Made by a program: the position numbers and the translations under genes
NCBI GenBank assembly: GCA_965223015.1
Contig: CBDCVL010000010.1
Span: forward strand, 216,086-280,085
Direction of reading: 5' to 3'
DNA length: 64,000 nucleotides
DNA from: Vicinamibacterales bacterium
Lineage (GTDB): Bacteria; Acidobacteriota; Vicinamibacteria; Vicinamibacterales; UBA8438
Notes under the pieces: generated by a model
Told to the model about the DNA's origin: nothing
What the model saw: only the letters and a program-made list of their open reading frames with translations
Database searches by the model: none
In this document: positions 5,769-62,957 of the stretch, one piece after another
How positions within the stretch are numbered: position 1 is the first letter of the stretch
Layout of the letters: the number at the start of each line of letters is the position of its first letter

Positions 5769-5897
5769 CGCAAGCCGGAGCGATTCGCCACAGAAGACTC
5801 ACGCGTTTTCCACATCCGTGTCGCGAGGGCGCGCACGGCGCGCCCCGCCGGAGCGGCGCGGGGCAGTGCCCCGCGCGCGAGCGACGGCGAGGGGCTT

Positions 5898-5911
5898 GGG
5901 GCTCGAGCCCC
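5898..5911. terminator. GC-rich palindrome between convergent genes (possible bidirectional terminator region)
   Basis: GGGGCTCGAGCCCC is a perfect palindrome. More GC hairpins lie at about 5830-5880 (GGGGCAGTGCCCC). No U-tract is present. Confidence 0.3.
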
Positions 5912-5924
5912 ATCTAGAGATGCC

Positions 5925-24600: not shown

Positions 24601-24701
24601 GCGGTGGCCACCAGAGGTTCCAGTGTCATGTCCTCAAGAGTCGGCTCCACACAGCCGGATGTCGGGCAGCCGGCCGGAGCGTCCGATTCTCCGACTGCCA
24701 C
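21591..24701 (-). CDS. large multidomain glycosyltransferase (GT-B/GT4-like N-terminal module)
   Basis: The GT4-type C-lobe motif FVAPYLYGSGLKIKVVEAASRGKAIVTT, followed by VVLWGNGGHTRALV (Rossmann-like) and a further GT-B-like region. It overlaps the downstream gene by 14 nt. Confidence 0.75.
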   Translation of the reverse strand: MAVGESDAPAGCPTSGCVEPTLEDMTLEPLVATASDASPSRIGQVLIVYPLCLDHVGHGNIQRILAIAKYLAASGFEVDLAYQGNPRVAPVEAQYSLFRRVYRVEADMPSSDDELCTQRLNAFYSGHDLPALYQRPSSALTMLVRSLLEAEPYQAVVATYAWTAPAFAGLTRDVLRVCDVQDILHQHAEACSRATGEATSFALPTATEEFLWRQFDVLLAITPEDEIRISHVTLPHQHVLTVRHAVPTANAASLGADDVALYAGSDNLPNVQALSWLLERVWAAVRRVRPSARLRIAGLIGRALPESMLGVAGVEVLGFQPSLSDEVERCGVFVAPYLYGSGLKIKVVEAASRGKAIVTTRAGVHGSGLTSGRSLEVHDDPEAFAEALVQLLGTRSLRESRASAALAEATACFSREGCYGPVASIVRLLGASTQTPAGHGIRPEVISRIQATCEQVAPERVVLWGNGGHTRALVAALHGTDVSVALIIDGRTRSAGSDPSGLPVIPASAFSPKPRDLVVLSSETFEDEMWTDLAAFRDGGGSVLGLYDSRLVSRAVVDRLSSPVRMRLGLAPFAGRVSNRRTVTFWDSQARVDRWWRLNALAELGAASNRRSLDTVIVSHRSVASSMPALNDLPETASVAPILEIDRRVVCSDAQVGRRASARVESLAVTTTSRALATMTFRDDDVLVLVTPSPSECLGIAKGLREKGLSERPAIALYGFADAASWSDPSSFYGNRRTTWRFAEDVLAAAAGNRVTFLASDPHVAAEIETWTNRTVHTVGYPVPAVDSKGGRVKVGAIRRVVCFSHGGASQVRPLLEALANEAHDGALPRTALSWRTHYRDARLASDEQWRYGLASFLDVDLIDDQPASATYAVLSNADVVVVLNDTEDEGWVEAVCVHATAAGTQTLVPAGSMVARWLEARSVESRMFAPGDAVDLIRQLRRYFDDGHEGQPDPAHGQLMAGVACFAPDDVLGHLLDVTAVPAVNGLVDASTQGAVWEAIGERVPEVGHQVSATGSLGLDSQALLDDEEVTHAST

Positions 24702-24813
24702 GCATCGAGAACGGAACTCGATCCAGCCCGATCACCCGCCAACACGGCGAAGTAGTTGGGTTTAGCAAGCGACATGCCAGCACTCTCGAATCGTATGGAG
24801 TCCCTCTTCATCT

Positions 24814-27800
24814 TCAAGGGAGCGCGGAAACACGGTCCATGAACTGGCGAAACAAAAGAACCGTGCCGTCGCCGGCGGTGACCAACAGAGAACTTCCGGC
24901 CCAGGCGACGCCAAAAGGCGCGTAGCATGCGAGATTCAGCGGACGCGCCCCGACGCGCTCGATCCGAACCAGGTCTGAGAAAGGGTAGGTTCGCACGGCC
25001 CACTCCCCCCGTCTGGCCACGGACCCGCACTGCCCCTCACGGCCGGTCGCAGTACGGCGCATGGTGTGCCCGGAGGTGTCGCATCGGAACTCGTGAGTCA
25101 GGCGTCGTCGGGTGACACGGCCGCTCCTGTCCCTAACGACCGGCGCGACCACCAAGTCGGAGTCGTCAAGACGAAGGCATCCGGATGGTGTATCGACGAG
25201 AAGCCGGCCGGACCTACCGGGCAACCAATCCCACAGACCTCCAGCAAGGGCACACCAAATGGGCGACCCATCGGCCCTGAGCACCACTTGAGCAGGTTCG
25301 AAGGGCACCCTCTCGACGATGGGGTCACCTTCGGCCTGGCTACGGAGAAGAATGGCTTTATCGACGCGGTTCCACGCGAGAGCTCCTCCCTCACTTCCCC
25401 ACCCCACTTCGCCGGTGATGGCGACCGGCCAGTTCGAACCAGACTCGCTACGTCCATCCGAGCCGATCAGCACGCTGGTGCTGACCAAGTGCGGGGCAAA
25501 GATCGCGCGTTCTCCATCCAGTGTTGCCAGGGACCATCCAAGCGGGAGGTCGGTAAGGATCTCGGGCTCGACAAACGCAATGCTTGAGGCGAGAAACGCG
25601 ATCCGCGGGTCGGGTGCTGCTTGGCCCTTTGATACGACGCGAAGCTCGGGCCACGCCACAGATGTTGACTCGGTAGAGTCTCTAGGCGCGTCGTTCGAAA
25701 TCGCGAGCGCGCCTGTGAACGCCCGCATCAGAGCATCGACCCGAAGAGGCAGCGTCATGTGGCCCGACGGGCCTGGGAACTCGAGGCGAAAGGGCGCGTC
25801 CGGCTCCACAGTCAGTGCAGGGTCCAGTACGCCCCTCGCGACCGCCCGGACGAAACGCTCACACTCCGCAGCTGAGCCCGTGCTGGTGGCTCTGGCACGA
25901 AGAAGAGCGTGCCGATGAGCCCCCAAGGTGAGGCATGCGGCCTGCTCGTTGTCAATTGGCCGAAGCTGCTGCTCGTCCTCTTCGTCGAGAACCGGAAGAA
26001 CGGGACCCGACCAGTAGTCGAGGTGACCATGTGGGAAGCCGGTGGCACCCCCATGTAACGCCGACTCGACCTCGATGAGGAGTTCCTCGAGTGGGGCGAT
26101 CAGCGCCGCTGCCGATTCCGTCCAACGAAATCGGTATGAAAGAGGCAGTGCGTGGGCGTTGTCGTCGCACACCTCGGCCTCGCCGAGGCCCGTCGTCAGC
26201 CGTCGGATGGCCAGCAGAGAGTCGATCAACTCCACGGCTTCATCAGCGGCATCGCGACGCACGCAACGACCTCGAGCTTCCTTCGGCCTGTCACAACCGT
26301 CGAGCACCGAACGCTCTCCGGTCAAAACCGATCGCATCAACGCGACTCGGTCGGCCTCATGGAATCGAGGCGGGTGGCTTGCCGGCGCTGGCGAGGCAGG
26401 GTCGGCCGGTGCGGACGCTCCGTTGACAAGACCGTCGCGAGCAGCGACGGCAGCCGCATGAATCTCGGCAGCGGTCAGCATGTGTGAGCCAAAGTCCAGC
26501 CAGTCTGAGATCGGACTCGTTGCACTGTCGTCCGTCTCTCCAGGGGGCTCTCGAACGATGTCTCCAAGGCCTTGACCCACCGAATCGACGATCGATGGAT
26601 CCGGCCGCCGGCGACAAGATTCGCGGATCGTCGCGCGTAGAGCGAGGTCTCCTTCTCCCTTCACGTCGAGCCCAGCCTCCAGGTCGACCTGGTCCACACC
26701 CGGGCCAAACAGAATGCCGCCGCCGGTCGCATTCACTACGCGCCGTGAGGTTTCGCTGGCACGTGCGAGCAACCAATCACGAACCTCGACGAGATGCGGC
26801 GCCGTGAGGACGTCCTCCCCGTGTACGCTTGGCACCTCCAGCAGTTGTCGGCTTTCCAGCGTGTGTCGCCAGACAGTATGGAGGTTGACCCCTCGAGCTG
26901 TATGACTTGCCCACTCCTGTTCAAACGTCGTGCCCCGACAGTACGGCCGCTCATCGGTAAAGGCGAGGTCAGCACCAACAAGGATCACGGGGTCACAACC
27001 GAACCCGAGCGCCAGGTCGTATGCGGCGGTCAACACCGAGCCCCACACGTTGACGAGTGGCCGGTCCAGCCCCAGACGCTGCAGCCAGGGCCACGGATGG
27101 TGAGGACCAACCTTGAAAGTCGCCGTGCGCGACGACAACGGCTGAAGGGCCGCGGGATCGACACTGCCCTCAGCGAGTACCCATGTCTCTCGCCGCGAAG
27201 GCACACGAACTAGGTGTTGTCCGTTGGCTGCCGTGGGGTCGAGCGCCACCACCACGTGTGGATCCACGCCCGCAGTCGCAAGCGGCCGCCAGGCTGTGTC
27301 GGTCGCCACAATGAGCGGACGGTCGCTGAGCGCCCTGAGGGCAGGCAGATTACGGTCCAGCGACGGACCCGCAGCCACAACCACTGCAGGCACTCCATCG
27401 AATTTTCCCCTAAGACGGTCGGGACTGGCGCCATGCACGATGCAAGGGAGATTTCGCAGCGTGTTCAACAAGTAACGCCCAGCGTTATCGCGCCGCGCTC
27501 GAGCATTCATCTGCGCCGCCCGAACGGCCCGTTGCACTAGGCTCACTGCGTGGGCCATCGGCTCAGGCAGAGCTCGCGCCAGGACGGGGTGAGTGATGAC
27601 CGCGGGGGCCTGATCCTCGCCGGCTGTGGGCATGCCGAAGGCCCGCCAGAGCTCTTCAGCCCCTGGGTAGTCTGGGCCTATAACGAGGTCAACCTTGTCG
27701 GAGCGGTACAGCTCGGGCGTACGCGAGCGCGCGCCGTCCGCCAGCTGGGCCACTGGTTCCACGACGATGATTCGGGCGGCAGGCCAACGCCTGCGGGCAG

Positions 27801-28146
27801 CTTCAGTGACAAACCCCAGGCCGGCGCCAACGAGAACGACCACCGGCGGCGCCGGATCATCGACGACCCCGAGTTGCAGTTGCGCCTCGGCAAGCGGGTC
27901 GCGGGTACTGTGGAGCGACACACGGTTGCCTTCGGGCATTTGGATCCACGCCGCCCACCCTGCGGTGTGCGAGCTAGGATGCACGTCGACGATGAGCGGT
28001 TCGACGATCGCTGTTCCCTCATGTGCGTGGCTCGGATCGCTCGTTGCAGGATTCACTCTCGACGCATGCTTGAGCAAGCGACGTGCCCAAGCGCGCGCGC
28101 CGAACCTACGAGGTGTAGGCCAATTTCCTGAGCTCGAGCGACGCAA
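24814..28146 (-). CDS. giant Maf/DUF115 (MptE-like) putative glycosyltransferase with ~700-aa uncharacterised C-terminal extension
   Basis: DUF115 core VVVAAGPSLDRNLPALRALSDRPLIVATDTAWRPLATAGVDPHVVVALDP. The start codon is uncertain. Confidence 0.7.
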   Translation of the reverse strand: MRRSSSGNWPTPRRFGARAWARRLLKHASRVNPATSDPSHAHEGTAIVEPLIVDVHPSSHTAGWAAWIQMPEGNRVSLHSTRDPLAEAQLQLGVVDDPAPPVVVLVGAGLGFVTEAARRRWPAARIIVVEPVAQLADGARSRTPELYRSDKVDLVIGPDYPGAEELWRAFGMPTAGEDQAPAVITHPVLARALPEPMAHAVSLVQRAVRAAQMNARARRDNAGRYLLNTLRNLPCIVHGASPDRLRGKFDGVPAVVVAAGPSLDRNLPALRALSDRPLIVATDTAWRPLATAGVDPHVVVALDPTAANGQHLVRVPSRRETWVLAEGSVDPAALQPLSSRTATFKVGPHHPWPWLQRLGLDRPLVNVWGSVLTAAYDLALGFGCDPVILVGADLAFTDERPYCRGTTFEQEWASHTARGVNLHTVWRHTLESRQLLEVPSVHGEDVLTAPHLVEVRDWLLARASETSRRVVNATGGGILFGPGVDQVDLEAGLDVKGEGDLALRATIRESCRRRPDPSIVDSVGQGLGDIVREPPGETDDSATSPISDWLDFGSHMLTAAEIHAAAVAARDGLVNGASAPADPASPAPASHPPRFHEADRVALMRSVLTGERSVLDGCDRPKEARGRCVRRDAADEAVELIDSLLAIRRLTTGLGEAEVCDDNAHALPLSYRFRWTESAAALIAPLEELLIEVESALHGGATGFPHGHLDYWSGPVLPVLDEEDEQQLRPIDNEQAACLTLGAHRHALLRARATSTGSAAECERFVRAVARGVLDPALTVEPDAPFRLEFPGPSGHMTLPLRVDALMRAFTGALAISNDAPRDSTESTSVAWPELRVVSKGQAAPDPRIAFLASSIAFVEPEILTDLPLGWSLATLDGERAIFAPHLVSTSVLIGSDGRSESGSNWPVAITGEVGWGSEGGALAWNRVDKAILLRSQAEGDPIVERVPFEPAQVVLRADGSPIWCALAGGLWDWLPGRSGRLLVDTPSGCLRLDDSDLVVAPVVRDRSGRVTRRRLTHEFRCDTSGHTMRRTATGREGQCGSVARRGEWAVRTYPFSDLVRIERVGARPLNLACYAPFGVAWAGSSLLVTAGDGTVLLFRQFMDRVSALP

Positions 28147-35592: not shown

Positions 35593-35641
35593 GCGTCTCA
35601 AGAGGCGCACCCACCTTCAGCGACCAGGACTAAAGCGCTTT

Positions 35642-36157
35642 TCATGACCGTGTGGCGGCCGAGTACCCGCAGTGCCGAAAATAGTTGCGGCATTCGTCAG
35701 GGCTGAAGTGCGCCAAGCACTCGCCGAGGAACGGCCAGAGCGTCTCGGTGCTGCGACAGCGAGCGGTGCGAACGAGGGCTTTGAGCTTCGCGAAGCAGAG
35801 CTCGATGGGATTGAGGTCCGGGCTGTAGGGTGGCAAGTACCAGAGGGTGGCCCCGGCGGCCTGGATGGCGCGTTGGATGCCGGCGACCTTGTGGGCCCCG
35901 AGATTGTCGGCAATGACGATGTCGCCGGGCTGCAGGGTCGGCACCAGGATCTGTTCGATGTAGGCGCGGAAGCTCTCGCCATCGATCGCGCCGTCGAAGA
36001 CCCCCGGTGCGGTCAGCCCCGTGACCCGCAACGCGGCGAGAAACGTGCTGGTCTGCCAGCGCCCGCCGGGGGCGTGGTCGTGGACGCGCGCGCCACGCGG
36101 TGCCCGGCCGTACCGCCGAAGCAGATTGTTCGTGATGCCGGTTTCGTCCAGAAACAC
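35642..36157 (-). CDS. IS630 transposase orfB (DDE catalytic part)
   Basis: ..VFLDETG.. and ..YSPDLNPIE.. (DDE/D motifs). The frame is open upstream back to the A-run. Confidence 0.8.
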   Translation of the reverse strand: MFLDETGITNNLLRRYGRAPRGARVHDHAPGGRWQTSTFLAALRVTGLTAPGVFDGAIDGESFRAYIEQILVPTLQPGDIVIADNLGAHKVAGIQRAIQAAGATLWYLPPYSPDLNPIELCFAKLKALVRTARCRSTETLWPFLGECLAHFSPDECRNYFRHCGYSAATRS

Positions 36158-36218
36158 GAGGTGGGCGACGTCCCAGGTCGGCGCCGCCGCGTGCCACGCG
36201 ACCCGCGCGGCCGCGACG

Positions 36219-36581
36219 TCAGGCCGATCGTGTTCGGACGGGCGGACCGTTTTTTTTAACGGTCAGGCCAAGGGCCCGTACGGCGCGCCAGACCGTCGGC
36301 ACACTCGCGGGCGTGGCGAGGGCGTCCTTCAGCTCAGCCAGCGTGCGATCCGGGTGCGCCGCAATCAGATCGGCCAAGGTGTGCAGGTGCGGCTCGAGCA
36401 TGCAGCGCCGTCCCTGTCGCTGGACGCGAGGCGCCACCTCGCCCGTGTCGCGCCGTCGCTGTTTCAGTAGCCGCACCCACGACCCGCTCACGCGGTACTT
36501 CGCCGCCACATCGGCCGCCTTCATCCCGGCATCGCTGTCGAGTAGCACCCGCTCTCGCAGATCCATCGAATAGGCACGCAT
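36219..36581 (-). CDS. IS630 transposase orfA (HTH part)
   Basis: [12 protein letters not shown].. is the helix-turn-helix N-terminus typical of IS630/Tc1-like transposases. It ends just after the A8 run (T run 36250..36257 on the plus strand). Confidence 0.8.
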   Translation of the reverse strand: MRAYSMDLRERVLLDSDAGMKAADVAAKYRVSGSWVRLLKQRRRDTGEVAPRVQRQGRRCMLEPHLHTLADLIAAHPDRTLAELKDALATPASVPTVWRAVRALGLTVKKNGPPVRTRSA

Positions 36582-36714
36582 CGGTCCTCCTGCATCGGTA
36601 TGCGCAGAAGTACCACGACCGCCCCAGGTAGTACAAGGCCTATTTGAAAAGCGCTTTAGCAGGACCAGAAGGACGTCCGGGCTACGAAGCGCAGCTCACG
36701 ACGGGCGCGGCGTA

Positions 36715-51890: not shown

Positions 51891-52010
51891 ACACCTTCGT
51901 GGCGGTCGAGCCGGATACGAGAGAACCTTACTAGAGCGTTTTCCGAAAAGCTCTAGTACTCGATAGGCGGTTCATGGTACTCCTACGTGCAACGTCCTGT
52001 AGGAGGATCA

Positions 52011-52448
52011 ATGCGCGCCTATTCGATGGATCTTCGCGAACGAGTGCTCCACGATAGCGACGCGGGCATGCAGGCGGCCGCGGTCGCGAGCAAATACCGC
52101 GTCAGTGCCTCCTGGGTCCGGCGGCTCAAACAACGGCGGCGGGAAACCGGCGAAGTCGCCCCGCGCCAGCAGCGTTACGGGCGGCATCCGGTGCTCGCGT
52201 CCCAGCTGCACACGCTCGCGGCCTTGATCCGCGAGCAACCGGACCGCACCCTCGCCGACCTACAGGTCGCCCTGGGTACGTCCGCCAGTCTGGCGACGAT
52301 GTGGCGGGCCGTGAAACAGCTGGGCTGTACCGTAAAAAAAAACGGTGCGCGCGTCCGAACACGATCGCCCCGACGTCGCGGCCGCCCGCGCGCAGTGGGC
52401 AACGACTGCCCCGACGCTCGACCCGACTCGCCTCGTCTTTCTGGATGA
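52011..52448 (+). CDS. IS630 transposase orfA
   Basis: [12 protein letters not shown].., preceded by AGGAGG. Confidence 0.8.
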
Positions 52449-52950
52449 AAGCGGGGTCGCCACCAATCTCCTGCGGCGCTATGGGCGCAGCCTTCGCGGC
52501 CAGCGGGTCGCCGATCACGCGCCCCAGGGTCGGTGGGAGAGCAGTACCTTCATCGCCGCGCTGCGGGTGACGGGGCTCACCGCGCCGGGGGTCCTCGATG
52601 GCCCGATGGACGGGGCCAGCTTCCTCGCCTACGTCGAACAGATCCTCGTCCCGACGTTGCAGCCCGGTGACATGGTGATTGCCGACAACCTCGCCGCGCA
52701 CAAAGTCGACGGCGTGCGCCACGCTATTGAAGCGGCCGGCGCGACGCTGCGCTTCCTGCCGCCCTACAGTCCCGACTTCAACCCCATCGAGCTGAGCTTC
52801 GCCAAACTCAAAGCTATCGTCCGCCAAGCCCGCTGCCGCTCGCTCGACACGCTCTGGCCGCTCCTCGGTGCGTGTCTGTCGCGCTTCACCCCCACCGAAT
52901 GCCGCAACTACGTCCATCATTGCGGCTACACGGCCGCCAAAGCGTCATGA
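52345..52950 (+). CDS. IS630 transposase orfB (DDE part)
   Basis: LVFLDESG and YSPDFNPIE. The frame opens at the A-run. Confidence 0.8.
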
Positions 52951-52998
52951 AAAACGCTCTAGTCTGCCTATCGGTCTCACCCCTCTACGCCAGTAGCG

Positions 52999-54522
52999 TC
53001 AACGGGGCAGTTGTAGCACGACACGGCATCCACGGGGCTGTTTCGGGTGGATGGTCGCCGAGCCGCCGTGCAGCTCCATCACACGCCGCGCCGCTGCCAG
53101 GGCGACGGCGGCGGAGTACCCCCCGGGCCTTCCATGGAAACTCTCGTCAAAGAAACGCGTCATCAGTGTCGAGGAAACGGGCACATTGTCCTGGGAGAGC
53201 TCCACGACGGCAGTTGAATCGCGCACCGCCACGTCGCACCGGAGAACTGCCGGAGCTGTTTGACCAACCAGGGCCAGAATCGCCTGGAGCGTCCCCCCGT
53301 ACGCCATCACAAGGAGACGATCGTCCCCGCTCAGAACGATGGAAGCTTCTGTCAGGTTTGCCAATAATCGTGTGCTGGCCAACCGGCGCTCCGGCCGTGT
53401 CGCAGTGAACACCCGGTCGAGAAGCGAGCCAAGATTCTGACTGCCCCTATTCAGCACCGGTCGTCCACTGAGAACACGCAAACCTTCAACGAGCCAGAGC
53501 GCCCGCTGCAACTCTACCTTGGTGACTTCGCTGACCGTTCGATGGTAGGGCCGCCCGATGCCGTCCGCAGAGAGCCCCCAACACGACATCGCAGCTCCCA
53601 GGCTTCCGGTCAGCTCGCCGAGTGTTGGATCCAACACCGTCGCCAGATCTGGGACACGATGAGAGCCAGCTGTCACCGGGCTCTCCTGATCCATACCGCC
53701 ACGGTCCAACCACGCCAGCATGTGCGCCTCCTCGTCATCGACGTCACAGACCCTGCACGGAAGTAACGCGATCTCGGCCGCCTTGGCTGCTGCGAACCAC
53801 GCGGCTCCGACGAGAAGCTCGTAGCCGGATTCTTGGCGCCGAACGAGGAGCGGCTGCAGCAAACCGTGCCTTCGCACCACTGGTGCAAGGGACTCAGACA
53901 ACGCCGAATCAACGGACGGCAGGGCGTGGTCGGCGTGGATGTCGTCAATGGGCAACATGTCGAGCGGGATGACCTGCGCTGATCCAGCTGGGGTCGAATC
54001 CGAGTCGCTCGACGGAGCGGATGTTTCGGCAGCCCGACGATAAACCGCAGAAAGCATGTCCGGCCGGCCGGGGCGCTCGAAGGAGCGAAGCGCAGCGGCG
54101 AAATCTGACACCGACCCGTAGACAGGGGAATCGGGACCAGTACCAGAAACGAGCGCCCAGACATGCTCGGGAGCATCGGTGGGAAGAAGGGCGCGAAAGA
54201 TGTCGACGAGCGTCGCGACTGGGTCCGAAGGCCGGTTTGGCTGCCGGAGGAACCTCACGGTGCCGTCCGGAGTCAGCTCGAGATCGTGATAGGTCGGGAG
54301 CACACTCTTCCCCGACCGTTCGAGGACGTCGGCAACCTCGAGCACGATCGCGACCGCCTCCTGCCACTCGAAGGAGACCTGTCGCTGCACCAACGACGCC
54401 ACCGTAAGCGGGCCCGACGACGAAGAGGCCTCTCCTGACATCACCACGCAAGACTCGGAAGTTGGTCTACCTGACTCCAGGGCAGGCACAGGCCCGGATG
54501 GCTTCATCGCGGGCTGCCCCAT
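52999..54522 (-). CDS. three-domain fusion: kinase-C-lobe-like N-terminus, ParB/Srx-like domain, histidine-kinase-like (GHKL) ATPase C-terminus
   Basis: N-terminal FEWQEAVAIVLEVADVLERSG..YHDLELTPDGTVRFL resembles a kinase catalytic-loop region without the HRD/DFG residues. The middle VIPLDML..GLLQPLLVRRQESGYELLVGAAWFAAAK is ParB-N-like, with GAAW replacing GERR. The C-terminal ..GGYSAAVALAAARRVMELHGGSATIHPKQPRGCRVVLQLP is HATPase_c-like. Confidence 0.7.
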   Translation of the reverse strand: MGQPAMKPSGPVPALESGRPTSESCVVMSGEASSSSGPLTVASLVQRQVSFEWQEAVAIVLEVADVLERSGKSVLPTYHDLELTPDGTVRFLRQPNRPSDPVATLVDIFRALLPTDAPEHVWALVSGTGPDSPVYGSVSDFAAALRSFERPGRPDMLSAVYRRAAETSAPSSDSDSTPAGSAQVIPLDMLPIDDIHADHALPSVDSALSESLAPVVRRHGLLQPLLVRRQESGYELLVGAAWFAAAKAAEIALLPCRVCDVDDEEAHMLAWLDRGGMDQESPVTAGSHRVPDLATVLDPTLGELTGSLGAAMSCWGLSADGIGRPYHRTVSEVTKVELQRALWLVEGLRVLSGRPVLNRGSQNLGSLLDRVFTATRPERRLASTRLLANLTEASIVLSGDDRLLVMAYGGTLQAILALVGQTAPAVLRCDVAVRDSTAVVELSQDNVPVSSTLMTRFFDESFHGRPGGYSAAVALAAARRVMELHGGSATIHPKQPRGCRVVLQLPR

Positions 54523-54866
54523 ACGTACACGAGACGCATTGCGTCAGAAAGCATGTACCGTACCGCATAGTGTCCCTATGTTTAGGCTGTAAGCGTGCCT
54601 GTCGCACCGCTTGTCACCTTATACCCGTCGCGGAGTTCTTGCTGGAACAGGACTTTTGATCTATACGTGTCAGTACTCCAAGGTCGTGCAGCCGACCCCC
54701 GAAGCTGAAACCCGACACGCACTGAGAAGGGAGCCCGATTTCGATACTGCAGACCAGCTACCAGATTCGTCAGAAAGTGACGCGAGATTCGGTGCTCAAC
54801 GCGGTTCTTGCTGCAGTTTCTCGTGCCGATCGGCGACAGCCGATGAGAGCACTCGGATCGCGCTCT

Positions 54867-54883
54867 TGGCACAGCACCTGCAT
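54867..54883 (+). promoter_or_regulatory. candidate sigma-54 promoter for coiled-coil protein B
   Basis: TGGCACAGCACCTGCAT against the consensus TGGCACG-N4-TTGCW. It is followed by the GGGAGG RBS and GTG 54910. Confidence 0.5.
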
Positions 54884-54909
54884 TTGACGCTGCCTGGGAG
54901 GCAACTGAA

Positions 54910-57852
54910 GTGCCACTATTGAACCTCGGCTTCTTCCAGCGCAACTCGCGAGGGCCGGCAGAGACCAGCTCGGAGGAGCCAGGTCCAGATGGACTTTCTG
55001 CGGAATCCGAAGACCTCGAGGGCGGTGACGGCACCGACGAGGAGGACGCTGAATCACCCAACGGCGACACGCCAGTGGCTCTCCGCCGCCTCGCGAGTAT
55101 GCTTGACTCCGGCACCAGCGTGGGGCCCGCCGTCGCCCGCCTCACGAGTATGCTCGACTCCGGCACCAGCGTGGGGACCGCCGTCGCCGAACCCGAGGGA
55201 CCAGAACCGGAATCTGTTTCAGAACACAGTGCCGAGCCGGATACAGACCCGGGTACGGAGGCGGTTGCCTCGTCACCTGGCTCGACGGTACTCACTACCG
55301 AGGGGACAGACAGTCAATCCAGCGTTTTCGCTCCACCCCAGCCACAACAGCCCACGGTGTTTCTTCCGGCAGAAGCCGGCAAGGGCGAGGATGTGGGCAG
55401 CGTCAACTTGGAGCTCGAGCAGCTCCGCGCCGAGGCCGAGGCAGCGAAGACAGCGTTCTCTACGCTGCAGCAGGAGCTAAACGACAGAGTTGCGGAGGCC
55501 CGGCGAGCCGAGGACGAAGCCCGGGCCACCATCGCACAACTGCAGCGGGAACGAGACGACCGCGTCGCCGACGCGCGACGCGAGACCGAAACGGACCATG
55601 CGGCCCAGGTGCAGGAACTAGAGGCGCGTGCCACTGAACAACGCGAGACCGCCGTCGCCGAAGCCCACACCGACGCCGAGGCCGCCCTGAAACACGCCCT
55701 CGCCGAGAGCGCCCAGCAGCACGATGCCGCCCTGGCCCAGCTCCGAGCCGAGGCCGCCGAGGCCAATGAAGCCCAAGCCACCATCGCACAACTGCAGCAG
55801 GAGCTAGCCGAGCGGGTAGCTGACGCACGGCGCGAGACTGAGACGGACCATGCGGCCCTGGTGCAGGAACTGGAGGCCCGTGCCGCCGAACAACGCGAGA
55901 CCGCCGTCGCCGAAGCCCGCACCGACGCCGAGGCCGACCTGAAACGCGCCCTCGCCGAGAGCGCCCAGCAGCACGATGCCGCCCTGGCCCAGCTCCGAGC
56001 CGAGGCCGCCGAGGCCAATGAAGCCCAGACCACCATCGCACAACTACAGCAGGAGCTAACCGAGCGGGTGGCTGACGCACGGCGCGAGAATGAGACGGAC
56101 CATGCGGCCCAGGTGCAGGAACTGGAGGCGCGTGCCACTGAACAACGCGAGACCGCCGTCGCCGAAGCCCACACCGACGCCGAGGCCGACCTGAAACACG
56201 CCCTCGCCGAGAGCGCCCAGCAGCATGATGCCGCCCTGGCCCAGCTCCGAGCCGAGGCCGCCGAGGCCAATGAAGCCCAAGCCACCATCGCGCAAGTGCA
56301 GCAGGAGCTAACCGAGCGGGTGGCTGACGCACGGCGCGAGACCGAGACGGACCATGCGGCCCAGGTGCAGGAGCTGGAGGCGCGTGCCGCTGAAGAACGT
56401 GAGACCGCCGTCGCCGAGGCCCGCACCGACGCCGAGGCCGCCCTGAAACGCGCCCTCGCCGAGAGCGCCCAGCAGCATGATGCCGCCCTGGCCCAGCTCC
56501 GAGCCGAGGCCGCCGAGGCCAATGAAGCCCAAGCCACCATCGCGCAAGTGCAGCAGGAGCTAACCGAGCGGGTGGCTGACGCACGGCGCGAGACCGAGAC
56601 GGACCATGCGGCCCAGGTGCAGGAGCTGGAGGCGCGTGCCGCTGAAGAACGTGAGACCGCCGTCGCCGAGGCCCGCACCGACGCCGAGGCCGCCCTGAAA
56701 CGCGCCCTCGCCGAGAGCGCCCAGCAGCACGACAACGCCCTGGCTACCGTCCGGACCGAGCTCGATGAGGCCCGGACCACCGTGGCGCAGCTGCAACAGA
56801 ACCTAACCAAGCGGGTAGCTGAGGCGCTGCAGGAGGCCGACGATGACCATGCGGCCCAGATCCAGGAAGTAGAGACCCGAGCCGCCAGACGGCTCGAGAC
56901 CGCGATGGCCGAAGCTGATGCTGCCCACACCGCGCGCGTCGAAGAAACGAAGTCACGTGCCGATGAGCAGCGCGAAGAAGCCGTCAGCCAGGCGAGAGCG
57001 GCAGCCCACGCCGAGCTGGACCGTGCCCTGTCTGAAAACGCGAGGCAGCACGACGACGTACTCGCGCACACGCAGGGGGAGACGGAAAAGGTCCGACAGG
57101 AAGCGATTCGGGCACACGCAGAGGCAGACGATGCCCGACAGGAGCTTGCGGCCGTGCAATCCAGCTCCGACAAAGCTCAGGCGCAGCTCAGCGAGTTGCA
57201 GACCACGTTCTCGGACCAAGTCGACCTGATGAAGCGTGAAGCCCACGCGGCCTATGTCACCCAGTTGGCAGAGATGGAGGCGCGTCTAAGCGCGACCCGC
57301 GAAGCGCAGGCCGCAGCGGAGGCGACCTTCGGCCGGAAGCACGCGGAGCTTGCCGAACGACACAAAGCAGCCCTGATGAAGGTTCAGGCCGACACAGAGC
57401 GGGCCGAAGACGAGCTGACGGCGTTACGGAACGTCGTCGCGGACAGGATAGAGCAGGCCAAGCAAGAGGGTGCTCGGGAACAGGCGACACAGCTCTTGGA
57501 AGTGGAAGCAGGGGCGGAAGCACGTCTGCGGCACCTGCAGGAAAAACACGCCGAGCGTATCAATCAATTGACACGTCAGGCCGACACCCAGCACACATCT
57601 GAGCTCGAACAAGCGCGGGCTCAGGCCGAAGCGACCCTTGCCCGAGAACAGGCAAGACTCGCGCAGCGCCACGGTGAAGAGCTTGCCCAGGTTCGCGAAG
57701 ATGTGGAGCGTGCCGCGCAGTCCGTTCGCGACGCCCGGACGCAGCACGCGACCGAGCTCGCCGAACTGGAACGACGCACAGAGGCACGGCTCTCGGAGGC
57801 CGTAGCCAAAGCAAGAGCCGCGGCGGAGGAAAGGCTAAAGAGCAGACCCTAG
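54910..57852 (+). CDS. 980-aa coiled-coil protein B with acidic N-terminal region and 84-aa tandem repeats
   Basis: GTG start with a GGGAGG RBS. The N-terminus MPLLNLGFFQRNSRG is followed by an acidic low-complexity region and then about 800 aa of Ala/Glu/Arg/Gln-rich heptad-like sequence. Confidence 0.85.
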   Translation: MPLLNLGFFQRNSRGPAETSSEEPGPDGLSAESEDLEGGDGTDEEDAESPNGDTPVALRRLASMLDSGTSVGPAVARLTSMLDSGTSVGTAVAEPEGPEPESVSEHSAEPDTDPGTEAVASSPGSTVLTTEGTDSQSSVFAPPQPQQPTVFLPAEAGKGEDVGSVNLELEQLRAEAEAAKTAFSTLQQELNDRVAEARRAEDEARATIAQLQRERDDRVADARRETETDHAAQVQELEARATEQRETAVAEAHTDAEAALKHALAESAQQHDAALAQLRAEAAEANEAQATIAQLQQELAERVADARRETETDHAALVQELEARAAEQRETAVAEARTDAEADLKRALAESAQQHDAALAQLRAEAAEANEAQTTIAQLQQELTERVADARRENETDHAAQVQELEARATEQRETAVAEAHTDAEADLKHALAESAQQHDAALAQLRAEAAEANEAQATIAQVQQELTERVADARRETETDHAAQVQELEARAAEERETAVAEARTDAEAALKRALAESAQQHDAALAQLRAEAAEANEAQATIAQVQQELTERVADARRETETDHAAQVQELEARAAEERETAVAEARTDAEAALKRALAESAQQHDNALATVRTELDEARTTVAQLQQNLTKRVAEALQEADDDHAAQIQEVETRAARRLETAMAEADAAHTARVEETKSRADEQREEAVSQARAAAHAELDRALSENARQHDDVLAHTQGETEKVRQEAIRAHAEADDARQELAAVQSSSDKAQAQLSELQTTFSDQVDLMKREAHAAYVTQLAEMEARLSATREAQAAAEATFGRKHAELAERHKAALMKVQADTERAEDELTALRNVVADRIEQAKQEGAREQATQLLEVEAGAEARLRHLQEKHAERINQLTRQADTQHTSELEQARAQAEATLAREQARLAQRHGEELAQVREDVERAAQSVRDARTQHATELAELERRTEARLSEAVAKARAAAEERLKSRP
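55087..55188 (+). repeat. 51-bp in-frame tandem duplication (RLASMLDSGTSVGPAVA / RLTSMLDSGTSVGTAVA)
   Basis: Read directly from the sequence. Confidence 0.9.
55525..56784 (+). repeat. five tandem in-frame 252-bp (84-aa) repeats inside coiled-coil protein B
   Basis: Unit starts at 55525, 55777, 56029, 56281 and 56533. Units 4 and 5 are identical over roughly their first 195 nt. A degenerate sixth unit follows. Confidence 0.95.
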
Positions 57853-57872
57853 CCGACAGCGACGAGCGTCAG

Positions 57873-58307
57873 ATGGCCGAAATCAGGCGCATCACTGCCG
57901 AAGCCAGACAAGTTCTTGCCGCCCAGCAGGAGGCCACTCGCAAGGAAGGCGCCCGTTCCCGTGACGCGGCGGTGCGAGCCGCCCGAGAATCTGCGGAACA
58001 TGCGGCAACCCGCCGTCTCGAGGCCGAGATGGCTCGTATGCGCGCCGAAACGGAGCGGACCGTAACGCAGGAACTCGACTCGGCTCGCGCCAAGGCTGAG
58101 CAACGGCGAAAACGCGCGATCGAGAAGGCGCATGCCGTGGCCGAATTGGAGGCGTCTCAAGCACTCGAGGATGCTCTGGCACGCGCGGCCTCCGAACGGG
58201 AGCTCCGCGCCGAGATCACAGGTCTGAAGTCTGAGGTGAAGTCGGCCAGTCGAACTGAAGACAAGACCGGTGGCGTTCGGCCCATGCGTGACGTCGACGG
58301 CCTCTAG
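57873..58307 (+). CDS. coiled-coil protein C (144 aa), possibly the displaced C-terminus of protein B
   Basis: Same composition and style as protein B. Its reading frame is open upstream to about 57830, overlapping the end of protein B. Confidence 0.55.
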   Translation: MAEIRRITAEARQVLAAQQEATRKEGARSRDAAVRAARESAEHAATRRLEAEMARMRAETERTVTQELDSARAKAEQRRKRAIEKAHAVAELEASQALEDALARAASERELRAEITGLKSEVKSASRTEDKTGGVRPMRDVDGL

Positions 58308-58321
58308 ACACCCGAAGGACC

Positions 58322-60127
58322 CTACCTGTCGTACGACGGTACGAAACTGATCGGAAGCTTCTCTGTAAGACTGGCTGTGAAGATGTCGGTCCGAGCCACA
58401 CCCTCGACATCGCGGGCGATCGGCACGCCCAGGTAGTAGAGGAGGGTGGGGGCCACGTCGACGACGGAACCGCGGGAGCGTCGTCCGGGTTCGACCTGTG
58501 CTCCGTAGGCGAGCAGGAATCCATCGGGGGCATTCTCATGTGTCCCGGTCGTATCTGGATCACCGACGGCCAGCGCCAATAGACGTTTGGTCACGCTGAC
58601 CGGCTCCATACCGAACCCAGAAACCACGACGAAGAGATCGTCCGGTCCCAGGATCTCCAACACCTCTCCGACCTCAACATCCACTTCTCGGTAGTAGGTC
58701 TCAAGGCTAGAGACGTCCCCTTGGCTATCGCCAAGGCCCATGAACGGGAGCGGCGTCTGTGGCGGAAGAAAACTGTGTCCAGCAAGGTCGAGTCCCCGAT
58801 ACCTGACTGCGAACAGACGGACCTCCGTAAACTGATCCCGAAGCTCGTTGGCAATCCGTCCGTACAGGCGATCGCGCCAGATCGGCGCCACTTCAGCCGG
58901 CGGGGCCAGGGTACCGTCCAGATCAGATTCGGCGCCGTGAGCGGCGCCCCGACTCCCCACGGCCCGCATCGCCGTTGCACCAACGATGGCGACGTCCTCT
59001 GGGTAGGCTGCCTCAGCCGCACGCGGGTCCAAACGCGGGTCAGCCATGAGATGAAACTGGTCACTCACCAGAAATCCGTGAACCGGTTGCACCGGATGAG
59101 TGAGTGGCCATCCGACGATGCCGACCGGTACGCCCTGCCCACTGAGAACACTCCACAGCGGCCGTGACCTAAGCGTTGCCGATGAGGCGGGCTCCTCATC
59201 TAGGAACCCTAGGTAGACGAGGGCCTGCGCGAAACAGTGATCCGGTAGGATCTCCAGACGACCGAGATCTGTGCCGAACGCATACGTTGACGTAGAGATC
59301 ACTCCATGTTGCGGTGGATACTTTCCTGTTGCGACGGTCGCCCACACCGGTTCAGGCTGGGTGGGGCGCAGCGTGGCCAGGTGCATCGCGGCACCAGAAT
59401 CCATCATCCGACCGAAGTTGGGAAGGCGCCCCTCGGCCGTCGCGAGCGACAGGTAGTCGAGAGACGCGCCATCGAGAAGCAGCATCAGAACGCGCGAGCG
59501 ACCGGTGGAAGGCAGACTCCAGCTACCGACCTCCAGAGGGTAGGCTCCCAGCCGACGCGGCACCGCCTCCCCACGTGCGACAATCGGTAGCGAAACGGAC
59601 GCGACGACCGCCAACCCGAACAGCGACGCCCCGACGACGCTCCCGCGCCGGCCGAACGAGTAATGAACCACGGCGATCGCTAGCAGCGCCAAGGCGCACA
59701 ACCCCATCACGACGGTCCCCACACCGAGCCGCCGAGCCGCCTCCTCGGCCAGCGCCGTGCGAAGCCCCCTCTGATTGAGCCACATGAGAAGCGCCGCTCC
59801 ACTCGCTGCAGCCGCGCTCAACCACGAGAGCAGCCGGAGGCTCAGCCAACCCGGCGACAGTACCTCGGACGACATCACTTGCCGAAGGACGATGAGTGTG
59901 TAGAAGATCGCCGCTGCATGGACTCCGTAGAAACCGATGACGACGACGAGCAGAGGCCACACGACTCCGAGCTCGAGAGGCAAGTGAGGATTGAGTTGAA
60001 GAAACAGGATCGCGACGTACACGGCAGCCAACGCTCCGGCCAGCACGGCGTTCGTGAGCATTCGAAAATATCGCATGGGACCACCCGCAGCTGCACTGCT
60101 CAGCGCCCATGATGCCAGAAAACCCAT
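58322..60127 (-). CDS. polytopic membrane protein with periplasmic alkaline-phosphatase-superfamily (type I phosphodiesterase/NPP-like) domain
   Basis: About 5-6 N-terminal TMs, then LMLLLDGASLDY..LPNF..TLRPTQPEPVWATVATGK (metal/nucleophile Thr region). Confidence 0.75.
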   Translation of the reverse strand: MGFLASWALSSAAAGGPMRYFRMLTNAVLAGALAAVYVAILFLQLNPHLPLELGVVWPLLVVVIGFYGVHAAAIFYTLIVLRQVMSSEVLSPGWLSLRLLSWLSAAAASGAALLMWLNQRGLRTALAEEAARRLGVGTVVMGLCALALLAIAVVHYSFGRRGSVVGASLFGLAVVASVSLPIVARGEAVPRRLGAYPLEVGSWSLPSTGRSRVLMLLLDGASLDYLSLATAEGRLPNFGRMMDSGAAMHLATLRPTQPEPVWATVATGKYPPQHGVISTSTYAFGTDLGRLEILPDHCFAQALVYLGFLDEEPASSATLRSRPLWSVLSGQGVPVGIVGWPLTHPVQPVHGFLVSDQFHLMADPRLDPRAAEAAYPEDVAIVGATAMRAVGSRGAAHGAESDLDGTLAPPAEVAPIWRDRLYGRIANELRDQFTEVRLFAVRYRGLDLAGHSFLPPQTPLPFMGLGDSQGDVSSLETYYREVDVEVGEVLEILGPDDLFVVVSGFGMEPVSVTKRLLALAVGDPDTTGTHENAPDGFLLAYGAQVEPGRRSRGSVVDVAPTLLYYLGVPIARDVEGVARTDIFTASLTEKLPISFVPSYDR

Positions 60128-60144
60128 CGGGTATACTCCCCGGG

Positions 60145-60966
60145 ATGCTGATTGATATCGACGCGGTGGTATTGTCGAACGATCGGCTCTCTCCGGATTA
60201 CAACGTCGTCGCGGTCGCGGCCCCTGAAATCGCTCGCCAGAGTCGGCCGGGACAATTCGTGATGGTCAAGCGGGGTCTGGGGGCGGAACCCCTCCTCCGC
60301 CGCCCATTCTCAATCTTCGAAGTGCTTCGCACTGATGACGGACAGGTCAAAGGACTGTCGCTCCTGAACAAGATGGTCGGCGCAGTGACTCGAATGCTCT
60401 TTGCCCTGCAGATTGGGGAGCATCTGGACTGCCTGGGGCCCCTCGGACGACCGTTCTCCGTGGTCTCTCCACCTGACCACGCGTGGTTGGTCGCCGGAGG
60501 TGTCGGCCTGGCGCCATTCCTGACCCTCGCAGAGGCGCTCAAGGCGCGCGGAACCGAAACCACGCTGTTCTACGGCGGGCGATCCGTCGCCGACCTCTAC
60601 TATCTGGAGCGGTTCGACCAGCTCGGCGTTCGCCTCATTCTCACGACAGAGGACGGCAGTCTCGGTGAGCGGGGCGTCATCACGCTTCCGCTCGAAAGCG
60701 AGCTCGCGGCGGCACCGGTTGGCCAACCTGTCACTCTCTACGCGTGTGGCCCCACCGGAATGATGCGTGCGACGGCGGCGCTGGCAGACGCGCATCATCG
60801 CTCCGTGCAGGTTTCACTCGAGCAGATCATGGGATGCGGACTGGGGGGATGCTACAGCTGCGTCGTGCCCGTTCGAGGGGACAACGAGTCGACCCACCTG
60901 GTCCGGTCGTGCCTTGACGGGCCGGTGTTTGGTGGCGACCAGATTGCCTGGAACGAGCTCATCTGA
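60145..60966 (+). CDS. pyrK: dihydroorotate dehydrogenase B electron-transfer subunit
   Basis: PGQFVMV..RRPFSI (FAD binding), CGPTGMM, and the 2Fe-2S cluster motif CGLGGCYSC. Confidence 0.85.
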   Translation: MLIDIDAVVLSNDRLSPDYNVVAVAAPEIARQSRPGQFVMVKRGLGAEPLLRRPFSIFEVLRTDDGQVKGLSLLNKMVGAVTRMLFALQIGEHLDCLGPLGRPFSVVSPPDHAWLVAGGVGLAPFLTLAEALKARGTETTLFYGGRSVADLYYLERFDQLGVRLILTTEDGSLGERGVITLPLESELAAAPVGQPVTLYACGPTGMMRATAALADAHHRSVQVSLEQIMGCGLGGCYSCVVPVRGDNESTHLVRSCLDGPVFGGDQIAWNELI

Positions 60967-60978
60967 GCGCAACGGCTC

Positions 60979-61935
60979 ATGTCGGTAGACCTCACCGTTC
61001 AGTTCGGTCCGCTTCCACTCAAGAATCCGCTGATTGCGGCCAGTGGGTGCTTTGGCTACGGTCTCGAGTACGCGGACGCCGTCGATCTATCGACGCTCGG
61101 TGGCGTCGCCGTGAAAGGTCTATTCCTCGAGGCGCGCGCGGGTCATTCCCCTCAGCGGATAGTCGAAACACCGAGCGGCATGCTCAACGCGATCGGGCTG
61201 CAGGGCATCGGGGTGCGAAAGTTCGTCGATGACAAACTCCCAGCGCTGCGAGAGCGAGGAGCAACGGTCATCGTGAACATCTGCGGTACAACCATCGATG
61301 AGTACGCGGAGCTCGCCAGGATTCTGTCTGACGCGGACGGCGTCGCAGCACTCGAACTCAACATCTCTTGCCCGAACATCAAGGAAGGCGGCATCAGCTT
61401 TGGGTGCGACATTTCAGGTACCCACGCCGTGGTCTCGGCCGTGCGAAAGGCGACCGACCTTCCGATCGTCCCTAAGCTCACGCCCAACGTCACCGACGTG
61501 GCCTCATTCGCACGCGCCTCCGAAGAGGCCGGAGCCGATGGCGTGTCTTTGGTCAATACCTTCCTGGCGATGGCGATCGATGTGGACACCCGCCGACCGA
61601 AGTTGTCGAACGTCGTAGGTGGACTAAGTGGTCCGGCGATCCGACCGATCGCCGTCCGGATGGTTCACCAGTGTCGGCAGGCGGTGCGGATTCCTATCAT
61701 GGGCATGGGTGGGATCATGACCGCCGACGATGTGGTCGAGTTCATGATCGCGGGTGCCGACGCGGTTCAGATTGGCACCGCCAATTTCGTCGACCCGTTC
61801 ATTTGGCCAAAACTATTGGCCGGGTTGACATCCTATCTCGAACGCCACCATCACGAGTCGGTCCGCGAGATCGTCGGCTCGATCGATCTGTCCGAGCCCG
61901 ATGCGAGACCTGAGATGCCATGGATCAGCTCCTAG
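60979..61935 (+). CDS. pyrD: dihydroorotate dehydrogenase (class 1B) catalytic subunit
   Basis: [19 protein letters not shown], and GGI....D..EF..AGA. Confidence 0.92.
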
Positions 61936-62615
61936 TCGCGCTCGACGTCGATTCCTCTGCTCGAGCACAGGAACTGAGCGATCAGCTTCGTGGTGTAGCC
62001 GGTGGATTCAAGATCGGTAGTCGACTCTTTACGGCCGAGGGGCCGTCGCTTGTTCGCCAGCTTGTCGACGAGGGAGACCGGGTCTTTTTAGACCTGAAGT
62101 ACCACGACATTCCAAGCACTGTCGCAAGTGCGGTGCGTGCAGCCGCGGACATGGGTGTCTGGATGCTGACAGTCCATGCGTCTGGCGGACAGGACATGAT
62201 GGCGGCGGCGAAGGACGCGGCGCACGGGACGGGCAGCGATCCGATAATCGTCGCCGTCACCGTGCTCACCAGCATCGACGATAGCGCGCTCGCCGACCTC
62301 GGTGTGGCGGGTCCGGTGCCGCGGCAGGTCGAGGCGCTCGCCGCGCTGGCCCGGAAGTCCGGAATCGATGGGGTCGTCGCGTCTCCACTCGAAATCGGCT
62401 TGATCAGGGCCAGCTGCGGGAAGGACTTCACGATCGTCACGCCGGGCATCCGGAACCCCGGCACCGATCCGTTGAACGACCAATCGCGAACAATGGACGC
62501 CGCGAGCGCCGTGAGAGCCGGTGCCAGCTACCTGGTCGTGGGTCGACCGATCATCGCCGCACCGGACCCGCGGGCCGCGGCGGTTCAGCTTGCGAGGCAG
62601 GTCCAAGCCGGATGA
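61920..62615 (+). CDS. pyrF: orotidine 5'-phosphate decarboxylase
   Basis: LVALDV.., [10 protein letters not shown], and VVGRPI. Confidence 0.92.
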
Positions 62616-62851
62616 CGCAACTCACACTTCTGACCAGGAATGGTTGCCACCTGTGTGAATCCATGAAGACTACCGTTGCCCACGTTCGGCGGGCACATCC
62701 GATCGCCTTGACGGAGATCGATATCGGGACCCGACCCGATCTTGAGGAACAATTCGGGACGCAGATTCCCGTACTGCTAAAGGGAAACCAGGTAGTCGCC
62801 CGGCACCGAGTCTCGACCTCGCAACTGATTGCGGCGCTGGGGCAGGAATAA
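62612..62851 (+). CDS. glutaredoxin-like protein (DUF836/thioredoxin fold)
   Basis: CHLC active-site-like motif near the N-terminus. 79 aa, overlapping the pyrF stop. Confidence 0.7.
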
Positions 62852-62856
62852 GAAAA

Positions 62857-62887
62857 GCGGGCGACGAACTCTCCGCCCGTCGCCCGC
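62857..62887 (+). terminator. hairpin after the pyr operon (10-bp perfect stem, 11-nt loop)
   Basis: GCGGGCGACG..CGTCGCCCGC. No U-tract is present. Confidence 0.35.
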
Positions 62888-62957
62888 TAGCAGCCCGTGG
62901 TGAAAGTCCTTCGTCATAGGGATCGACACGATTGACCGCTCGTACTACACTTCGGGC

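Follow-up and report, generated by a model that had tools for sequence, protein, structure and literature searches.

A strain-variable array of 84-residue units in the gene for a predicted helical rod protein of Vicinamibacterales

What is the origin of five near-identical 252-bp repeats placed head to tail within a bacterial gene, and what might they do for its product? We have addressed this in a window of 64,000 nt (i.e. the whole stretch of DNA analysed) from contig CBDCVL010000010.1 of a Vicinamibacterales bacterium, an uncultured acidobacterium of soil type, where the repeats lie in an open reading frame (ORF) that encodes a predicted rod protein. The explanation we favour is in-frame expansion within a lineage-specific rod gene, whose product would serve as a scaffold in the cell. 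We are highly confident of the structural and evolutionary part of this explanation, and taken as a whole, scaffold included, it is on balance probable. The scaffold function itself is drawn by analogy and is put forward tentatively, as something rather doubtful. A first-pass annotation had read the repeats in much the same way; it was largely right, except for its idea of heptads and for missing that the gene is truncated and that mobile elements interrupt the sister alleles.

The tandem array is far beyond chance. Tandem Repeats Finder (TRF) places it at 55516-56744, in frame with the ORF at 54910-57852, with a period of 252 nt, 4.9 copies, 94% matches, a score of 2101 and no indels. A seed-and-extend repeat search gives five copies at an exact spacing of 252 nt, with weaker copies on both sides (68-75% identity). 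Read in the register 55525 + 252i, the units keep the phase of the ORF, and their translation gives the 84-residue units that the first-pass annotation had quoted; its five near-identical in-frame repeats are thus confirmed. Units 1 to 4 have 229-239 of 252 nt in common in pairwise comparison. The corresponding values for unit 5 are lower (206-227 of 252 nt) because its last quarter diverges. Units 4 and 5 do not differ in their first 197 nt, and at an offset of 252 nt the longest exact match extends over 279 nt (56199-56477 = 56451-56729). The five units, the best preserved of all, represent the most recent layer of the array.

A profile made from the five units finds further matches in the rod, at residues 623-670 (E = 1.7e-15), 671-729 (E = 1.3e-12), 760-833 (E = 5.6e-6) and 930-1000 (E = 8e-7). 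Degenerate units are thus distributed along the remainder of the rod, the whole of which is an old repeat structure. The ratio of nonsynonymous to synonymous substitution rates (dN/dS) lies between 0.16 and 0.43 for pairs of units 1 to 4, with dS of 0.10-0.24. For the C-terminal block compared with its counterpart on the related contig L010 the ratio is 0.34, and for pyrD and pyrF it is 0.18. Values below unity, both between units and against L010, indicate that selection acts on the plus-strand frame. Coding on this strand is also supported by conservation of the N- and C-termini among orthologues. We note that two long ORFs span the array on the opposite strand, at 55314-57173 (619 residues) and 55460-56584 (374 residues). 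They arise as artefacts of a repeat that is GC-rich and poor in stops, and have no support from any homologue.

Comparison with sister strains shows that the newest duplication is polymorphic. An exhaustive HMMER search identified P0010, a fragment of 253 residues that is 99% identical to residues 1-209 of the rod protein. Its contig (L004; ENA ERZ25069191, 1.34 Mb) has flanks 99-99.9% identical to the window. A cluster-mate, P0037, leads to a third strain (L012; ENA ERZ28763718, 336 kb). L012 is collinear with the window without gaps on either side of an insertion sequence (IS), i.e. over window positions 52959-56311 and 56309-62890; because the match is gap-free across the array apart from this element, L012 has five units. 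Over units 1 to 3, L004 has no mismatch to the window in 735 nt. Thereafter it has exactly one 252-nt unit of the twin pair 4/5 fewer, making four in all, with one extra base at a unit junction and three differences from the window in the last unit. Thus the newest 252-bp duplication is present in the window and L012, and absent from L004. The first-pass annotation had predicted both a very recent duplication and a copy number that varies between strains; the identity of L004 over units 1 to 3 together with its lack of a twin unit bears out the former, and five units in two strains against four in the other confirms the latter. The related contigs bear names in the style of long-read assemblies.

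The window carries a truncated allele of the rod gene. Its GTG start is backed by a conserved N-terminus (window VPLLNLGFFQRNS, L005 MSLISLAFFKRGS, L010 VSLLNLSFLQRNS), and the gene calls for P0010 and P0037 begin at the same place. At the other end of the gene a 2-nt insertion shifts the frame into an early stop. L004 reads without interruption past this site (...EERLKQTLADSDERQMAEIRR...) and on to a stop equivalent to window 58307, and the frame is likewise continuous in the orthologues P0012, P0016, P0028, L013 and L014. The insertion is common to L012 (no gaps over 56309-62890; L012 also has a separate gene of 144 residues) and is found in neither L004 nor any orthologue. Its presence in L012 makes a consensus error unlikely. 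The detached tail contains a motif, ELEASQALEDALARAASERELRAEI...DVDGL, that is conserved in P0028, L013 and L014. The ancestral rod protein is thus one of ~1131 residues, whose gene the frameshift in the window splits into ORFs of 980 and 144 residues. For annotation, therefore, the rod ORF as it stands should be read as a truncated allele and the long antisense ORFs across the array as artefacts.

The other alleles of the species carry lesions too. L012 combines its five units and the 2-nt frameshift with an IS630 derivative of 866 bp (L012 9403-10268) that is flanked by a TA duplication and lies in unit 4, equivalent to window 56310/56311. The four-unit allele of L004 is interrupted at the start of unit 1 by an IS-like insert of ~1.19 kb (L004 10623-~11816, equivalent to window ~55531-55545) with weak remnants of rve_3, a degenerate integrase, and it has in addition the 1-nt insertion at the unit junction. 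The allele of the window has the 2-nt frameshift as its lesion. Because every allele seen bears a frameshift or an IS insertion, the data suggest relaxed constraint on the rod gene in this species, although a strong target preference of the IS elements or a tolerance of truncations could also be the cause. It is possible, though unlikely, that the gene is simply decaying here, the array being a relic and the changes in copy number, frameshifts and insertions being neutral events in a pseudogene rather than a tuning of length. The loss of a conserved tail by a frameshift common to two strains would be expected on this basis, as would the insertions, and the rod gene evolves faster than its neighbours (dN of 0.117, compared with 0.014-0.028 for pyrF and pyrD). 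By contrast, decay would not readily account for dN/dS below unity between units and against L010, nor for intact orthologues elsewhere (P0028, P0016 and L013), and the window retains the ORF of 980 residues together with an in-phase ORF of 144 residues that has its own ATG. Decay in this species is compatible with in-frame expansion as the explanation for the family as a whole.

That family is narrowly distributed. The rod protein has no sequence match to a family in Pfam, NCBIfam, PADLOC, PHROGs or PDB, and comparison of its AlphaFold2 (AF2) model with the PDB using Foldseek gave no matches. A phmmer search gives homologues with E values from 1.6e-42 to 4e-9, and the exhaustive search gives 31 matches among 1.84 billion representatives. 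Scans of genome contigs and metagenome contigs with the single rod protein confirmed no relatives. A search with tighter alignment criteria among 185,579 species-representative genomes gave one match, L005, a metagenome-assembled genome of Vicinamibacterales (Acidobacteriota). Its orthologue has ~1140 residues and an array of its own, with a period of 261-263 nt and 2.2 copies (units of ~87 residues). L010 is syntenic with the window, its rod protein being ~79% identical and the partner gene adjacent to it 84%. It has ~5.2 units that alternate between 231/232 and 243 nt (77 and 81 residues), with a higher-order repeat of 475 nt (2.6 copies, 98%). The units of L010 are 93-100% alike among themselves and 76-81% identical to those of the window, a pattern that fits concerted evolution or separate recent expansions. 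Complete orthologues with no array are also found: P0028 (449 residues), L013 (496 residues) and P0016 (513 residues). Orthologues in Vicinamibacterales-like contigs therefore range from 449 to ~1140 residues, the ~2.5-fold difference in rod length coming about as units are gained and lost, in agreement with the suggestion of the first-pass annotation that the array sets the length of the rod. Related species have expanded different unit variants at the same place in the gene, and the independently homogenized arrays of relatives, together with the degenerate units along the whole helix, uphold the proposal that the rod was built by repeat expansion.

Alignment of 240 units from 37 proteins gives the family consensus A.LEQDLA....RREA..AHAAQV..LEA.A....EAAVR.........RALAETAQQHDAALAAVRA.LE, or in short RRE..AHAAQV..LEA....QQHD.AL..VRA.LE for a unit of ~80-90 residues. 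The metagenomic proteins P0001-P0009 are true homologues of the rod protein (E values down to 1.6e-42), having the unit signature and a periodicity of 3.64-3.69 in common with it. They differ in possessing a C-terminal transmembrane helix (the maximum 19-residue hydropathy is 1.7-2.06 in P0001-P0007), whereas the rod of the window is unanchored, with a maximum of 0.75. The rod protein belongs to an undescribed repeat family. Synteny with the distant anchored homologues was considered and rejected; their neighbourhoods are unrelated and contain no ParB/kinase-like partner. Variation of repeat number in helical rods is a familiar phenomenon, and in kind the present case is fairly ordinary. It nevertheless provides a natural series of one rod, with 0, ~2, 4 and 5 recent units and unit lengths of 77, 81, 84 and ~87 residues. 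Such a series is useful for asking how coiled coils outside the heptad pattern accommodate insertions, and how the length of a rod evolves.

We turn to the architecture of the protein. Residues 1-165 are predicted by AF2 with a predicted local distance difference test (pLDDT) of 31-42 and no secondary structure, and have a net charge of -25. Two short motifs within this head are conserved in L005, L010, P0014 and P0028. At the N-terminus, residues 2-12 (window 54913-54945) form a conserved peptide, LLNLGFFQRNS, which reads LISLAFFKRGS in L005 and LLNLSFLQRNS in L010; we take it to resemble the membrane-targeting peptide at the N-terminus of MinE. The second motif, ALRRL(A/T)SMLDSGTSVG, is duplicated in the window, while the 51-nt unit encoding it is single in L010. 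Its core, (A/V)LRRLxSML, recurs in orthologues (LAVRRLKSML in L005, LALRRLKDML in P0014 and ALDRLRGML in P0028), and a role as a short linear motif for interactions is possible. The remainder is helical, with AF2 helices at residues 166-366, 398-565, 590-730, 741-853 and 859-977. The breaks do not track the 84-residue period. The rod is rich in alanine (26%), glutamate (16%), arginine (10%), glutamine (10%) and leucine (8%), and almost devoid of glycine and proline. No transmembrane segment was detected by 19-residue hydropathy, and neither a signal peptide nor a sorting motif is present in the sequence. A spectrin-like bundle for each 84-residue unit was rejected, given the non-periodic breaks and the different models that AF2 produces for identical units.

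The first-pass annotation raised the possibility that 84 residues correspond to 12 heptads in register. This does not hold. The power spectrum of hydrophobicity in the array peaks at 84/23 = 3.65 residues (112.7) rather than at 84/24 = 3.5 residues (26.4), and units of 77, 81 and ~87 residues are found in relatives. Over the whole rod the peak is again at 3.65 (power 157, compared with 71 for the 99th percentile of shuffled sequences), and in the C-terminal rod outside the array it is at 3.7. Sliding windows give 3.6-3.74 nearly everywhere, with only residues ~713-838 lying near 3.45, and in seven of nine homologues the peak falls at 3.64-3.74. The 140 positions of the hydrophobic seam include 48 alanine, 17 valine and 10 leucine residues. 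Each unit places two histidines on this seam, in TDHAAQV and QQHDAAL (in unit 1, His25 at 55597-55599 and His66 at 55720-55722). Of 163 aligned units, 86% retain the QQHD histidine, which ranks with the best conserved residues of the family.

Hendecads have a period of 11/3, and alanine-rich cores are described for the hendecad dimers FilP and Scy (PMC9858780). The rod sequence has the character described there (a period of ~3.67 and a small alanine core), with its peak at 3.65 and a seam dominated by alanine. Because of this weak alanine-rich seam with a 3.65-residue period we infer that the rod is probably a nearly straight coiled coil of hendecad type, as a dimer or a higher oligomer, and not a canonical heptad supercoil.

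The same periodicity allows other readings. A period of 3.65-3.7 is also typical of the 11-mer helices of apolipoproteins, LEA proteins and PspA, and the rod might be an amphipathic helix associated with membrane or lipid. The transmembrane anchor of the distant homologues P0001-P0007 and the hydrophobic N-terminal peptide LLNLGFFQR would be consistent with this, but the non-polar face is mostly alanine, the net charge is -74, TRF finds no 11-mer or 22-mer sequence repeat and Pfam gives no match to the apolipoprotein, LEA or PspA families; we consider it quite improbable. Slightly less probable still is a monomeric single α-helix, stabilized by E/R salt bridges and acting as a spacer that sets the distance between the N-terminal motifs and the C-terminal tail. 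The composition is suggestive (E+D 21%, R+K 13%, few large hydrophobic residues, and no glycine or proline in the units), as are the very long isolated helices of the AF2 model. Yet the high alanine content and the significant hydrophobic periodicity are atypical of such helices, and lysine is rare.

The fifth unit is very unlikely to be an artefact of assembly, i.e. a misjoined or expanded repeat. An exact identity of 279 nt between neighbouring units is of the type that assemblers mishandle, and the related assembly L004 has four units. However, all five are present without a gap in L012, which was assembled independently from a different sample, units 1 to 3 can be distinguished from each other by their dS, and the three substitutions in the last unit of L004 are as expected of a separate allele. 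Least credible of all is a fibril that is secreted or displayed at the surface and whose repeats vary antigenically. The variation of repeat number in a helical protein rich in A, E and Q does resemble that of streptococcal M proteins. Against this reading there is no signal peptide, transmembrane segment or sorting motif, no match in PHROGs, PADLOC or Pfam, and an organism that appears diderm-like, with OmpA and CsgG/LpoB encoded nearby.

How, then, might the rod be made and used? In the explanation we favour, the ancestral product would comprise the conserved N-terminal peptide, an acidic disordered head of ~165 residues and an uninterrupted α-helix of ~966 residues made up of diverged units. 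Unequal homologous recombination or replication slippage, acting between the 252-bp repeats, would add or remove units. Each would lengthen the helix by ~12.5 nm (84 x ~0.15 nm), and the array would in this way act as a length module. The rod would then serve in the cytoplasm as a scaffold or spacer within a module for the envelope or for cell organization. We propose this location and role because the protein has no signal peptide or transmembrane segment and its gene is conserved beside those of a ParB/Srx-histidine-kinase-fold protein and a RodZ_C protein. The scaffold role is the weakest step, based on synteny and on analogy with Scy/FilP and PsmA, with DivL of Caulobacter and with the bactofilin-PadC system of Myxococcus.

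The partner is a protein of 480-507 residues encoded divergently from the rod gene. It matches Pfam ParB_N (5e-10) and ParB/Spo0J in the PDB (1e-8), with a match to HATPase_c below the cutoff (3e-4). Judged by eye, the usual arginine-rich GERR motif of its ParB/Srx-like domain reads GAAWFAAA, and the glycines of the ATP lid and the G-boxes look degenerate. The C-terminal half has the histidine-kinase DHp-CA fold in its AF2 model (pLDDT 80.7), and Foldseek aligns it with HK853, DivL and ZraS (E ~1e-10, target-normalized template-modelling score ~0.7). From its sequence the protein may be a pseudokinase adaptor. The partner family is small, lineage-restricted and unnamed (31 clusters), and its members in the L006 lineage (P0060-P0067, ~410 residues) are without the ParB segment. 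The pairing of rod and partner genes is kept in nine loci (the window, L004, L012, L010, L005, L006, L011, L013 and L014). In seven of these (the window, L004, L012, L006, L011, L013 and L014) a RodZ_C gene follows the partner; next to the partner in L005 no RodZ_C gene was found, and the L010 contig ends within the partner gene. The RodZ_C proteins of the window and L006 are 38% identical.

Several observations weigh against the explanation as a whole. Some concern the coiled coil. The AF2 monomer model has moderate confidence (mean pLDDT 62, predicted template-modelling score 0.27), the rod bears a large net negative charge, and the hydrophobic seam is weak, with valine, leucine and isoleucine at 32 of 140 positions compared with 48 for alanine. 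The different unit lengths among relatives mean that no fixed register is kept. Others concern the genetics. Copy numbers were taken from assemblies. None of the three alleles in this species is undamaged, so that variation in the array may be neutral drift in a dispensable gene. Finally, the putative functional link of the rod to its neighbours is drawn from synteny, and the pairing is absent from L008, a contig of 4.4 kb with the distant orthologue P0016.

Streptomyces has a pseudokinase partner, the histidine-kinase-like PsmA, in its cellular Scy/FilP system (PMC12963549). The rod resembles Scy and FilP in being very long (Scy has >1000 residues), internally expanded and, to judge by its sequence, cytoplasmic, with a non-heptad period of ~3.65 and an alanine-rich core. 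It differs in belonging to Acidobacteriota and not Actinomycetota, in the signature of its 84-residue unit (QQHD, AHAAQV) and in having no detected sequence homology to them. No DivIVA-like motif was found at its N-terminus using Pfam and NCBIfam (E <= 0.01), where there is instead the disordered acidic region. The rod is thus most like the hendecad-rich, intermediate-filament-like Scy and FilP, yet falls outside that family. Its architecture is that of intermediate-filament-like and Ccrp proteins, with a head (residues 1-165), a helix from residue 166 and a tail with a short non-helical end (...TEDKTGGVRPMRDVDGL). In common with Ccrp proteins and crescentin it has a long helical rod between a head and a tail, and no enzymatic domain, and its RodZ_C neighbour gives it, too, a genomic context related to cell shape. 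On the other hand the Ccrp class is defined by cofactor-independent assembly into filaments, whereas the rod is known here from its sequence, and its period is not that of heptads.

In streptococcal M proteins and in the polar hubs HubP and FimV, in-frame tandem repeats vary in number between strains by recombination, and, as in the rod, the regions they form are acidic. Unlike these exported or membrane-anchored proteins, the rod has no signal for either fate.

In Vicinamibacteria, a large group of soil bacteria that has been little studied, the rod gene is a marker for a conserved neighbourhood of three genes, and we know of nothing reported on cell organization in these bacteria. A bolder version of the scaffold proposal, and an improbable one as matters stand, is that the rod, its probable pseudokinase partner and the RodZ_C protein together make up a cytoskeletal or polarity module of Vicinamibacteria that has not been described before. 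The rod would then be an envelope-tethered filament of hendecad type, its length tuned for each species and strain by gain or loss of units of ~84 residues. On this view the QQHD histidine of the seam might make assembly dependent on pH or on metal ions.

The features of the locus are collected in Table 1.

Table 1. Features of the rod gene and its neighbourhood, in coordinates of the window.
Feature	Position	Strand	Basis and remarks
RodZ_C-domain protein with a single transmembrane segment	51111..51890	-	Pfam RodZ_C 3e-15; downstream of ParB/kinase-like gene
IS630-family element between RodZ_C and ParB/kinase-like genes	51935..52958	+	HTH_Tnp_IS630 + DDE_3; strain-specific
Divergent neighbour: N-domain, ParB/Srx-like domain and histidine-kinase DHp-CA fold	52999..54522	-	Pfam, PDB, AF2, Foldseek
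Shine-Dalgarno-like GGGAGG	54896..54901	+	8 nt upstream of GTG start; read from sequence
Rod protein ORF, 980 residues, truncated allele	54910..57852	+	GTG start; ORF list and translation
N-terminal head, ~165 residues, acidic, S/E/G/P-rich, predicted disordered	54910..55404	+	Two short conserved motifs
Tandem duplication of 51 nt x 2, motif RL(A/T)SMLDSGTSVG(P/T)AVA	55086..55187	+	TRF period 51, 2.0 copies, 94%; also seed-and-extend search
Predicted α-helical rod, residues 166-980, A/E/R/Q/L-rich, no transmembrane segment	55405..57849	+	AF2, composition, hydropathy
Five units of 252 nt (84 residues)	55525..56784	+	Register 55525 + 252i; TRF coordinates 55516-56744
Youngest duplication	56199..56729	+	279 nt exact at offset 252; one 252-nt unit here absent from L004
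Degenerate repeat units and conserved C-terminal rod segment (including block LAEMEARLSATREAQAAAEATF)	56785..57838	+	Matches to unit hidden Markov model; alignment with P0011, P0012, P0014, P0016, P0028
2-nt AG insertion (AAAGAGCAG vs AAAGCAG)	57839..57840	+	Shifts frame; stop at 57850-57852; alignment to L004
ORF of 144 residues with own ATG, in phase	57873..58307	+	Detached C-terminal tail of ancestral ~1131-residue protein

A scan for promoters and terminators around the rod gene gave nothing above the expectation from shuffled sequence, and an Rfam search of the whole window gave no match. PADLOC gave no match for five proteins, and PHROGs returned only generic ParB-like matches for the neighbour. 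A reading of the ParB-like and phosphodiesterase neighbours as a defence system was rejected; there is no PADLOC match, and the phosphodiesterase gene is not conserved beside the distant orthologues.

The IS630 element that separates the RodZ_C and partner genes in the window is absent from L004 and L012, and is not part of the conserved module. It has terminal inverted repeats (CTAGAGCGTTTT.../...AAAACGCTCTAG), and its transposase frame is broken at a run of eight A nucleotides near 52337-52344. A second element of the same family (HTH_Tnp_IS630 + DDE_3) lies at 35634-36655 and is 73% identical to it. In L014 a transposase fragment (5529-6269) is located between the rod and partner genes. L004 carries an IS21-type element (4398-6863; Mu-transposase_C_2 + IstB) at a site equivalent to window ~50741, where the window has no such element. 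Active IS elements are numerous in this species. Elsewhere in the window, at 21591-28146 (minus strand) and 3304-5283 (plus strand), there are two very large ORFs, for a protein of 1036 residues with a group 1 glycosyltransferase domain and one of 1110 residues with an MptE-like domain, and an ORF for a multihaem cytochrome c of 659 residues, all unrelated to the rod gene.

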